A stretch of DNA of 64,000 bases from a virus (taxonomy: Duplodnaviria; Heunggongvirae; Uroviricota; Caudoviricetes), in the IMG/VR virus record IMGVR_UViG_3300028833_000069. One strand, 5' to 3'. The notes below the pieces were generated by a model. It was not told the origin of the DNA. It searched no databases and saw only the letters and a program-made list of their open reading frames with translations. The translations under genes and the position numbers were made by a program. Shown here piece after piece: positions 35,996-37,650 of this stretch. Each line of letters opens with the position of its first letter. The first letter of the stretch is position 1.

Positions 35996-37204
35996 ATGAA
36001 CACAAAAATATTTGCAAAAACAATAGAAGATGAGGCATCTTTACAGATTCAAAGAATGTCTGTATCAGATGCTTATCATGACTGTCAAATAAGAATAATG
36101 CCTGATTGTCATGCAGGTGCTGGCTGTACTATTGGTACTGTTATCGCTTTGAAAGATAGAGTTGTTCCAAATACAGTTGGTGTAGACATAGGTTGTGGAA
36201 TGTTAATTATTCCTATACTTGACAAGGATAAATTGTCTTTAGAAGAACTTGACAATTATATAAAGAATGAAATACCTTCTGGTTTTAACATTAACTCTAA
36301 ATTTCTAGGTAAAGAATTTTATAGTCCTCTTACTCTTGATAATTATAAATGTCAAGAAATACTTGATAGAGATTTTGTTTTAAAATCTATTGGAAGTCTT
36401 GGAGGAGGGAATCACTTTATTGAAGTTGATGTTAATGATAAAGGTCAAAAATACTTGGTTATCCACACTGGTAGTAGAAACTTAGGTGTAAGAGTATGTA
36501 AGTATTATCAAGAAAAGGCGATAAAAAGTTGTAAAGCAAAGAGAACAGACTTTACTGAGATTATTGAAAGACTTAAAGCAGAAGGAAGACAATCTGAAAT
36601 TCAAGCAACTCTTACACAAATAAAAGCAACTCAACCTCCATTTGAAGATGATTTGGCATATCTTGAAGGACAAGATTTACAAGATTATCTTAATGATATG
36701 AGATTGTGTCAAGGATATGCATCTTGTAATAGAAGAGCACTTGCTAGTAAGATTTTAGGAGGTGCTGGATTACTTTATACTCTTCAAGAATATCTTTTTC
36801 ATGATATAGGTTTTACTACAATTCATAATTACATTGATTTACCTCATAAGATTTTAAGAAAAGGTTCTGTAAGTGCACTTAATGGAGAAAAGCTTATTAT
36901 TCCTATTAACATGAGAGATGGTTCTCTTATTTGTGTAGGTAAAGGTAATCTTGACTGGTTATATTCTGCTCCTCATGGTGCAGGTAGACTTATGTCTAGA
37001 AAGAAAGCGAAAGAAACTCTTAAAGAAGAAGATTTTATTGAAGCAATGAAAGGTATTTATACAACTACAGCAACTAAAGATACTATTGATGAAGCACCTA
37101 TGGTATATAAGCCTATGGATGAAATTATTGAATGTATCAAAGATACTGTAGATGTTGTAGATATTATTAAACCTATATATAATTTTAAAGCAGCAGAACA
37201 ATGA
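35996..37204 (+). CDS. rtcB: RtcB RNA 3'-phosphate/2',3'-cyclic phosphate ligase
   Basis: The nucleophile motif SAPHGAGR is present, with GGGNHFIE, MPDCHAGAG and DIGCGM metal-site segments. The track ORF starts at 35936 and the likely ATG is at 35996. Confidence 0.8.
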   Translation: MNTKIFAKTIEDEASLQIQRMSVSDAYHDCQIRIMPDCHAGAGCTIGTVIALKDRVVPNTVGVDIGCGMLIIPILDKDKLSLEELDNYIKNEIPSGFNINSKFLGKEFYSPLTLDNYKCQEILDRDFVLKSIGSLGGGNHFIEVDVNDKGQKYLVIHTGSRNLGVRVCKYYQEKAIKSCKAKRTDFTEIIERLKAEGRQSEIQATLTQIKATQPPFEDDLAYLEGQDLQDYLNDMRLCQGYASCNRRALASKILGGAGLLYTLQEYLFHDIGFTTIHNYIDLPHKILRKGSVSALNGEKLIIPINMRDGSLICVGKGNLDWLYSAPHGAGRLMSRKKAKETLKEEDFIEAMKGIYTTTATKDTIDEAPMVYKPMDEIIECIKDTVDVVDIIKPIYNFKAAEQ

Positions 37205-37650
37205 TAAACAATCAAATGGACAAACTTATCATGGAAGCTATGAAAGCTCATGATAATGTAAGAAAAGAAGCTTTAAGAGCAATTAAAGCTGCATTATTAC
37301 TTTGGCAAACTTCTAAAGAAAATGCTAATAAGCCTATTACTGAAGAAGTTGAAATCAAAGTAATACAGAAAATGGTAAAACAAAGACAAGAATCTATTGA
37401 GCAGTTTACTGCTGCTGGTAGACAAGACTTGGCTGATGCTGAAGCAGCACAACTTAAAGTTCTCAAAGAGTTTTTACCAGTAGAAGCAACTAAGGAAGAC
37501 ATTTTGAAATGTTTCAATGATGTAATTGGACAAGATGGTTTTGAGCCTGTTAAAAAGAATATGGGTGTTATTATCAAAACAATAAAAGGTTCACTTCCTA
37601 ATGCTGATGGTAAACTTATTTCTGAAATAGTAAAAGAACATCTGCAATGA
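37201..37650 (+). CDS. GatB/YqeY-domain protein
   Basis: MEAMKAHDNVRKEALRAIKAALL...LKEFLP is typical of the YqeY family. ATGA overlap with rtcB. Confidence 0.55.
   Translation: MINNQMDKLIMEAMKAHDNVRKEALRAIKAALLLWQTSKENANKPITEEVEIKVIQKMVKQRQESIEQFTAAGRQDLADAEAAQLKVLKEFLPVEATKEDILKCFNDVIGQDGFEPVKKNMGVIIKTIKGSLPNADGKLISEIVKEHLQ

Follow-up and report, generated by a model that had tools for sequence, protein, structure and literature searches.

An optional RtcB RNA ligase gene between an intron-split tmRNA and a YqeY gene in a crAss-like phage

When a phage gene for an RNA ligase overlaps a gene for a tRNA-binding domain, in DNA rich in tRNA genes, do these genes form one module for RNA repair and tRNA resupply? 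A 64-kb stretch of viral DNA (IMG/VR record IMGVR_UViG_3300028833_000069; hereafter the window) raises this question. It encodes an RtcB 3'-phosphate/5'-OH RNA ligase (35996..37204, + strand) followed directly by a YqeY protein (37201..37650, +), and an initial annotation made from the sequence had joined the two genes and the window's tRNAs into such a module. Comparative evidence does not support reading YqeY as the partner of RtcB, or the tRNAs as part of a resupply module. The best overall explanation, to which we give a probability of roughly 55%, is that RtcB is an optional, stand-alone counter-defence gene, that YqeY is an unrelated neighbour, and that the tRNAs mainly serve codon usage and recoding.

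RtcB and its neighbour YqeY

The RtcB gene is an intron-less allele that ends in TGA and contains no in-frame TAG. Its 402-aa product matches PF01139 (217.4 bits against a cutoff of 27; profile positions 13-425 of 426) and PHROG 1075, 'tRNA splicing ligase' (424 bits). A longer start at 35936, taken by the mechanical open reading frame (ORF) call (422 aa), was rejected because homologues align from residue 2-3 of the protein that starts at 35996; the N-terminal extension would also overlap a conserved hairpin. Active-site residues were mapped with a profile built from eight homologues and aligned to the solved RtcB structures of Pyrococcus horikoshii (1uc2) and T. thermophilus (2epg). The nucleophile His327, within SAPHGAGR, corresponds to P. 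horikoshii His404 (CHGAGR of 1uc2) and is invariant in the eight homologues. P. horikoshii D65, H67, D95, C98, N202 and H203 correspond to D37, H39, D64, C67, N139 and H140 of the window protein, and E206, H234, H404, R408 and R412 to E143, H157, H327, R331 and R335; H329 corresponds to H277 by way of the T. thermophilus alignment. All mapped catalytic, metal and GTP-ligand residues are invariant among these homologues, which are 54-81% identical. The intact HGAGR motif noted in the initial annotation is therefore real, every catalytic residue is present, and the objection that residues might prove missing on careful alignment is answered.

Which kind of RtcB is this? The protein falls below both NCBIfam cutoffs for short RtcBs (PRK09588, 112 bits against 407; TIGR03073, 89.1 bits against 271.8). 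It belongs to a distinct, phage-rich clade that is common too in gut and rumen genomes of Bacillota and Bacteroidales. The label 'release factor H-coupled RctB' is found on some phage records, but assignment to the PrfH-coupled RtcB2 type was rejected given the score far below the TIGR03073 cutoff and the lack of an RF-1/PCRF-domain (PrfH) protein among the window ORFs. RtcA and RtcR have no Pfam matches in the window, so this is not an RtcBA/RtcR repair operon. Nor is it an RtcB-archease pair within the 64 kb, as no window ORF matches archease. Pnkp, Hen1 and Rnl are absent among window ORFs with 75 aa or more (Pfam E ≤ 1e-4), so the search for a Pnkp/Hen1-like or archease homologue that the initial annotation had proposed found none within the window. 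No CCA-adding enzyme or SmpB was found among the window ORFs. Established RtcB biochemistry needs no end-healing or cofactor genes.

The gene that follows encodes a 149-aa YqeY (GatB-tail-like) protein of host derivation, which matches PF09424 (111.9 bits against a cutoff of 27; profile positions 3-143 of 143) and phrog_1460. The protein consists of the YqeY domain only, with no GatB catalytic domain and no NCBIfam GatB match, and so the PHROG label 'tRNA amidotransferase' is a domain-level carry-over. It is 56-67% identical to 148-aa proteins encoded in chromosomal context on contigs of 0.4-1.5 Mb, one of them named Paludibacteraceae (Bacteroidales). These similarities indicate a separately acquired, host-like gene. 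As first described, the YqeY start overlaps the RtcB stop, by 4 nt (ATGA). Similar stop/start overlaps occur at YqeY/orf198, orf144/radical SAM, radical SAM/NadE and NadE/isochorismatase. Since overlap is the rule across the operon, it carries no meaning specific to RtcB and YqeY.

Does the pairing recur elsewhere? We surveyed 160 loci of the RtcB family with flanks of 6-10 kb, 80 of them bacterial and 80 viral, with one phage group dominating the viral set. Only two loci (L001 and L002), both from the window's own clade (81% identity), have YqeY close to RtcB. YqeY is absent within 10 kb of RtcB in the other 78 viral loci and is beside RtcB in none of the 80 bacterial loci. Conversely, YqeY occurs in L082 and L083 (60-62% identity) with no RtcB inside 10 kb, and in the phage-like contig L178 (67%) with no RtcB inside 8 kb. 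In MT835470.1, an entire 117-kb scaffold, YqeY adjoins NAPRTase, NadE, NMNAT and Nudix genes, and RtcB is absent throughout. Adjacency of RtcB and YqeY is thus not conserved across independent lineages, and our literature search found nothing specific on the two together.

We consider it very unlikely that RtcB and YqeY form a two-protein tRNA repair unit, in which YqeY recruits broken tRNAs or stands in for archease. The order of the two genes, with its 4-nt overlap, is fixed in the window, L001, L002, L088, L089 and L183; the window has no archease; and in D. radiodurans, GlnRS binds tRNA(Gln) more tightly by virtue of a YqeY-type domain (PMC1865053). However, that domain worked only in cis (PMC1865053), and such overlaps are common throughout the operon. 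YqeY is missing near RtcB in 158 of the 160 loci and is found without RtcB in other phages and in bacteria, and four assemblies have lost RtcB while keeping YqeY intact. RtcB and YqeY are, on these comparisons, best regarded as neighbours and not partners.

Natural loss and interruption of RtcB

The four assemblies that lack RtcB (L087, L184, L185 and L186) are near-identical relatives of the window phage, with at least 92% nucleotide identity, and YqeY is intact in all of them. Relative to the window the deletion runs between 35983|37161, and it lies at 3258-3272 in L087, 829-843 in L184, 443-457 in L185 and 348-362 in L186; about 44 nt of the RtcB 3' end remain. We rejected an assembly artefact as its source because the boundaries are identical in four assemblies from four different samples. 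RtcB is present in L183, L001 and L002, as in the window. Because near-identical phages have lost RtcB and kept YqeY, retention of YqeY does not depend on RtcB, and RtcB is an optional gene, a natural presence/absence polymorphism within a single phage species.

In two more distant relatives, L088 and L089 (~80% identity), RtcB is present and split. An intron-like insertion (230 nt at 3922-4151 in L088; 892 nt at 1745-2636 in L089) interrupts the gene after codon 138, within the metal-binding motif GGG|NHF. A U precedes the insertion, its last nucleotide is G, and P1-like pairing with the upstream exon is possible; the longer form in L089 encodes a LAGLIDADG-like ORF that contains in-frame TAG codons. 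RF00028 gives no match to either insertion even at E ≤ 10. Group I class is accordingly an unproven assignment, one suggested by the boundaries, the P1-like pairing and the optional LAGLIDADG-like ORF.

Is RtcB then simply a nearly neutral passenger, a frequent target of mobile introns and unimportant to the phage? Its variable presence among genomes at least 92% identical would fit such a gene, as would its interruption in L088 and L089 by a mobile insertion at the active-site codons GGG|NHF. We nevertheless regard this as rather unlikely. The catalytic residues are invariant across homologues only 54-81% identical, and the family (PHROG 1075) is widespread in phages, with 149 phage records. 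Patchy distribution is also the usual pattern of counter-defence genes.

The split tmRNA, its conserved leader and the tRNA genes

Upstream of RtcB lies a tmRNA gene split by an intron (34344..35614, +), which after splicing would give a 371-nt RNA with the tag ADRRPVRLAA*. Exon 1 (34344..34695, +) contains the 5' acceptor strand, the tag ORF, the pseudoknot region and the 5' half of the T-arm, and exon 2 (CGACUCCCAUUAGGUCCAC; 35596..35614, +) supplies the 3' half of the T-arm and the acceptor 3' strand. Between them is a group I intron of 900 nt (34696..35595, +), inserted in the T-loop between loop nucleotides 2 and 3. Its core (34686..34926) matches RF00028 with 87.7 bits against a gathering score of 50. 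Just before the intron stands a U, paired with G in P1, and the last intron nucleotide is G; the boundaries are 34695|34696 and 35595|35596. RF00023 scores 37.9 bits on exon 1, under its gathering score because the gene is split. ARAGORN calls the sequence spliced in silico as a tmRNA and does not call the unspliced one; the uninterrupted alleles of L001 and L184 it calls directly. The gene has tRNA-like ends, a resume codon, and a tag ORF with a hydrophobic end and a stop, and a G3.U70 pair can be read. On the opposite strand within the intron, an ORF of 143 aa (35066..35497, -) probably encodes a homing endonuclease (phrog_3322 'endonuclease', a weak match at E 1.1e-5).

Relatives show several alleles of this gene. 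In L001 and L002 the tmRNA at this position is uninterrupted (tag ASRRRPVRLVA*), and the similarity of the window to the intron-less genes of L001, L002 and L184 stops exactly at 34695. L184 has an intron-less allele that joins 34695 to 35596 and encodes the window's own tag, ADRRPVRLAA*. Exon 2 matches the 3' end of the uninterrupted gene in both L001 and L184. Three states can be told apart: no intron (L001, L184), an intron without an ORF (L087, L088, L183) and an intron with an ORF (L089), the ORF being present or absent together with the segment 34927..35589. The intron core at 34731-34927 has 81% DNA identity to a region of crAss phage cr128_1 annotated 'endonuclease' or hypothetical, which suggests that related introns circulate among crAss-like phages. 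Our search of the literature found nothing specific on tmRNA in crAss-like phages.

Could RtcB serve to mature the phage's own RNAs, for example by joining the exons of tRNA or tmRNA precursors? RtcB adjoins the tRNA/tmRNA cluster, and this phage lineage is rich in interrupted RNA genes, among them the window tmRNA and the tRNA-Arg(TCT) of L087. However, the introns that interrupt these genes are of group I (RF00028, 87.7 and 60.9 bits). Such introns self-splice by transesterification and require no ligase, so RtcB is not needed for the split tmRNA. Moreover, L087 lacks RtcB and keeps both an intron-containing tmRNA and an intron-containing tRNA, and all 24 window tRNAs fold as continuous genes. 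A role in RNA maturation is thus extremely improbable.

The 380 nt between tmRNA and RtcB contain a conserved structured spacer, or 5' leader (35775..35995, +). RNAalifold on five relatives finds eight pairs with compensatory double changes in the spacer, four of them in one 8-bp helix (35852-35859/35883-35890). A hairpin at 35944-35973 has a fully conserved 16-nt loop region and is followed by a U-run. Because hairpin and U-run end about 10 nt upstream of the RtcB start codon, the RtcB mRNA must include the hairpin. A T-box or other known riboswitch or leader was rejected, with no Rfam match in the 380 nt at E ≤ 1. We also rejected a simple terminator at 35944-35985, which the pattern scan does not list. 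Relatives that have lost RtcB still have the spacer, which there precedes YqeY.

This arrangement invites the reading that tmRNA and RtcB, perhaps with YqeY, are a phage ribosome rescue-and-repair cassette analogous to PrfH-RtcB2, in which tmRNA would release ribosomes that nuclease damage has stalled, and RtcB would mend cut 16S rRNA or the tmRNA or tRNA itself. In all RtcB-bearing members of the clade, tmRNA lies directly upstream of RtcB with the conserved structured spacer between them. RtcB2-PrfH is known to repair ribosomes cut by colicin E3 (PMC9304027, PMC9223846, PMC13166195), and in some bacterial species yqeY is co-transcribed with rpsU (bS21) (PMC13374519). Against this, the window RtcB scores far below the PrfH-coupled cutoff, the window has no PrfH or SmpB domain, and both tmRNA and YqeY persist where RtcB is deleted. 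ARAGORN, which would miss split genes, finds no tmRNA near RtcB in the other 78 viral loci. We judge such a cassette decidedly unlikely. The fuller version, in which tmRNA, structured leader, RtcB and YqeY act as one and YqeY guides the ligase or aids Gln charging or amber-suppressor decoding, is highly improbable. If a cassette of this kind did exist, it would be a functional analogue of PrfH-RtcB2 assembled from different parts.

What, then, are the tRNAs for? ARAGORN finds 24 tRNA genes in the window and Rfam 22. The initial annotation counted 25; a twenty-fifth tRNA-like gene does exist, in the form of the split tmRNA. Nor are there two arrays as it had stated. One compact array holds 11 tRNAs (Thr, Asn, Ala, Ile, Asp, Cys, Tyr, Pro, Gly, Gly and Met; 9312..10525, -; ARAGORN and Rfam); the remaining 13 are dispersed as single genes or pairs. 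Sixteen amino acids are represented in the set, along with two suppressors, both called by ARAGORN: an amber suppressor with anticodon CTA (14882..14972, -; 91 nt, with a long variable arm, a U1.U72 mismatch and A73) and an ochre suppressor-type tRNA with anticodon TTA (48653..48729, +; Rfam tRNA 64.4 bits). The latter would read TAA, which is the commonest stop codon in the window. The tRNAs match preferred codons directly or by wobble, such as AGA (79% of Arg), CAA (73% of Gln), GAA (75% of Glu) and TTA (40% of Leu). Supply of AT-rich codons and TAG recoding are a sufficient explanation for the tRNAs, at least as good as resupply after attack, and are predicted to be what the set mainly serves. 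It is possible that phage tRNAs replace host tRNAs depleted by nucleases.

The tRNAs nearest to RtcB are tRNA-Arg(TCT) (32973-33047, +), tRNA-Thr(GGT) (33968-34041, +) and, directly upstream of the tmRNA, tRNA-Arg(CCT) (34106-34179, +), all called by ARAGORN; orf234 (33230-33934, +) lies between the first two. The synteny of this region (32973..34179) is kept in L001, L002, L088 and L183. Arg(CCT) of the window is Lys(CTT) in L087 (2040-2116) and L183 (1097-1173), by a single base change that leaves the tRNA nearly identical elsewhere. Thr(GGT) has as its counterpart in L087 a tRNA with anticodon GCT (1903-1975), whose 73-nt body lacks a long variable arm. Since tRNAs at the same position switch anticodon between near-identical relatives, the tRNA set is evolving fast. 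The L087 counterpart of tRNA-Arg(TCT) is itself split between anticodon positions 34/35 by a group I intron (898-1188; RF00028, 60.9 bits).

The recoding concerns only part of the genome. The phage, which is AT-rich (GC about 31%), is crAss-like, and its host is probably a member of the Bacteroidales. The large terminase TerL (1085..3382, -; 765 codons with three in-frame TAGs) matches crAss-like large terminases across 80-90% of its length; identity is 30% with the TerL of Crassvirales and 45% with that of MT835470.1, an unclassified faecal phage. Long ORFs appear in the minus-strand block of late and structural genes (1-18000) only with TAG readthrough, and homologues have Gln at both informative TAG sites of TerL (2/2). 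We infer that early and middle genes use the standard code and that late, minus-strand genes read TAG as Gln. The long variable arm of the CTA tRNA hinted at Tyr, Leu or Ser, which we rejected given the two Gln sites; the shape of this tRNA is unlike that of a normal tRNA-Gln. No in-frame TAG occurs in plus-strand genes from RtcB onward. Other genes seen in the window include a GroEL-like chaperonin in the late block (4971-6431, -; 486 aa; Cpn60_TCP1; phrog_5725, 338 bits), an SPFH/Band 7 protein (31074-32936, +; 620 aa), a T4 gp30.3-family protein (51453-51899, +) and an NT5C-type 5'-nucleotidase (56000-56668, +).

A counter-defence role and comparison with known systems

What might an optional RNA ligase do for this phage? 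The initial annotation placed RtcB at the head of the plus-strand block. That block begins near 18.2 kb, where GC skew and ORF orientation both flip; what RtcB does head is a tightly packed operon that follows the tRNA/tmRNA cluster. The same operon contains a block for NAD+ salvage or reconstitution (39878..45589, +) with genes for NadE, an isochorismatase/PncA-like protein, a Prs-like protein, NAPRTase, NUDIX, radical SAM, NMNAT-like and Macro proteins. These identities come from NCBIfam nadE (151.8 bits), Pfam NAPRTase, NUDIX, CTP_transf_like and Macro, and phrog_619 and phrog_448. The Prs-like (phrog_619, 194 bits) and NAPRTase (PF04095, 198 bits) genes are adjacent. Farther downstream is a CinA/PncC-like gene (61948-62439, +). 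Directly after YqeY, the region 37647-39893 (+) holds three tandem paralogues (198, about 113 and 144 aa) followed by the radical SAM protein (39009-39893). The paralogues share the N-terminal motif SV(S/G)D(I/V)ITNSSSE(L/V/M)FV and match no family above a curated cutoff; one has a weak match to DUF1672 (18 bits against 25).

Elsewhere in the family, the context of RtcB also points to conflict with hosts. In the largest viral group, a gene with a Tad2-like (Thoeris anti-defence 2) domain lies directly downstream of RtcB in 66 viral loci. RtcB thus stands beside countermeasures against NAD-based immunity in two unrelated phage lineages, which fits a counter-defence role. At bacterial loci of the clade RtcB is repeatedly accompanied by a DUF2828/DUF7788 protein, by regulators of the WYL/WCX type and by an HTH protein, which we take to be the architecture of predicted RNA-repair operons. 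Given the DUF2828/DUF7788 and WYL operons in bacteria and the Tad2-like and NAD+ neighbours in phages, the repair role against host ribonucleases proposed in the initial annotation is plausible. RNA repair in counter-defence is, on this analysis, the most likely function of RtcB.

From residue conservation and gene context we infer an enzymatic activity, a substrate and a role for RtcB. It would be a stand-alone phage RNA ligase, encoded in the standard-code part of the genome and predicted to use GTP and Mn2+. The enzyme would first be guanylylated on His327. GMP would then be moved to an RNA 3'-phosphate, a 2',3'-cyclic phosphate being opened beforehand, and attack by the 5'-OH would reseal the break. 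No kinase/phosphatase partner should be needed, and probably no archease; some RtcBs are multiple-turnover enzymes without archease (PMC4604427). The most likely job would be to reseal tRNA or rRNA cut during infection by metal-independent host ribonucleases such as anticodon nucleases and ribotoxins. A survey of jumbo phages likewise describes phage RtcB as a ligase for cleaved tRNAs (PMC7824862). RtcB would then be an optional counter-defence gene in an operon whose other recognisable genes may rebuild NAD+. YqeY would be a translation accessory protein with a tRNA-binding fold of the GatB-tail type, the next gene in line and neither a subunit nor a cofactor of RtcB.

Several points weigh against assigning RtcB to counter-defence. 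The role is assigned through guilt by association and knowledge of other RtcBs; our literature search found no biochemical characterisation of any PHROG 1075-family phage RtcB and nothing specific on RtcB in crAss-like phages. RtcB is often lost in nature, which would be expected just as well of a nearly neutral gene. Wherever a member of the clade carries RtcB, the gene is preceded by the structured spacer and, before that, the tmRNA; this constancy may point to a link with the tmRNA instead of with host nucleases. The dominance of one phage group among the 80 viral loci means that they represent far fewer than 80 independent lineages. Finally, the window covers 64 kb, relatives of this phage reach about 160-170 kb, and an archease or Pnkp could sit outside it.

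Why does this locus matter? Annotations of RtcB ligases are common in phages, and their assumed function is to reverse the cutting of tRNA by nucleases of host defence. To this picture the locus adds no new mechanism. It corrects an over-reading, in that an overlapping neighbour gene is not a partner here, and it draws attention to a crAss-like phage, apparently one that recodes TAG, whose tmRNA is interrupted by a group I intron of unusual length. It also offers a natural experiment: near-identical gut phages with and without RtcB, and with a tmRNA that is intron-less, intron-only or intron-plus-endonuclease. These variants could be compared on Bacteroidales hosts to learn what phage RtcB protects against. 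The intron-invaded tmRNA and the natural RtcB variants are more useful leads than the RtcB/YqeY arrangement.

How does the locus compare with known systems? The tmRNA resembles bacterial intron-form tmRNAs, which also have a T-loop group I intron that obeys the -1 U and terminal G rules. A survey of tmRNA introns found insertion at T-loop subsite 3 only in the class Bacteroidia and no intron over 700 bp (PMC11915505). By our reading of the numbering in that survey, the window intron is also at subsite 3. It differs in being phage-encoded and 900 nt long, and in its endonuclease ORF, which follows P9, is encoded on the opposite strand and cannot be recognised as LAGLIDADG. Downstream, the adjacent Prs-like and NAPRT-like genes, known here from family-level matches, resemble the Adps and Namat pair of NARP1. 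NARP1 is an NAD+ reconstitution pathway that phages use against NAD-depleting defences.

For RtcB itself, the T4 system of Pnkp and Rnl1, which repairs tRNA(Lys) cut by PrrC, shares the logic of a phage ligase that reverses tRNA cleavage by a host nuclease. Its enzymes are unrelated and its end chemistry is different, with healing by Pnkp followed by an ATP-dependent ligase, whereas RtcB seals directly. PrfH-RtcB2 shares with the window a short bacterial-type RtcB; the window has a tmRNA where that system has a rescue factor, the tmRNA adjacency is specific to the clade, and the protein fails TIGR03073 and has no PrfH gene. In the tRNA splicing operon of P. horikoshii and many other organisms, RtcB is accompanied by archease. 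The catalytic residues of the P. horikoshii enzyme align one to one with those of the window protein, which is about 80 aa shorter and has no archease, and YqeY is not an archease homologue. The RtcB of the E. coli RtcB-RtcA operon, under RtcR, belongs to the same enzyme family, and the same GTP/Mn2+ and His-GMP chemistry would be expected in the window protein, as would joining of ends that bear a 2',3'-cyclic phosphate or a 3'-phosphate to 5'-OH ends. Unlike that operon, the window has no RtcA or RtcR, and its RtcB does not reach the PRK09588 cutoff. Closest are the PHROG 1075 RtcBs of Clostridioides phage phiCD211 and of Listeria, Bacillus and Enterococcus phages, proteins of the same family and of about 400 aa, with DNA similarity of 68-73% over conserved parts, and likewise stand-alone, with no RtcA or archease. 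They come from Firmicutes phages, whereas the window gene comes from a crAss-like phage, probably of Bacteroidales, and, unlike them, sits after a tmRNA and before YqeY and an NAD block. Taken together, these comparisons suggest that the window RtcB is best read as an ordinary, optional member of a known family of phage RNA-repair ligases.

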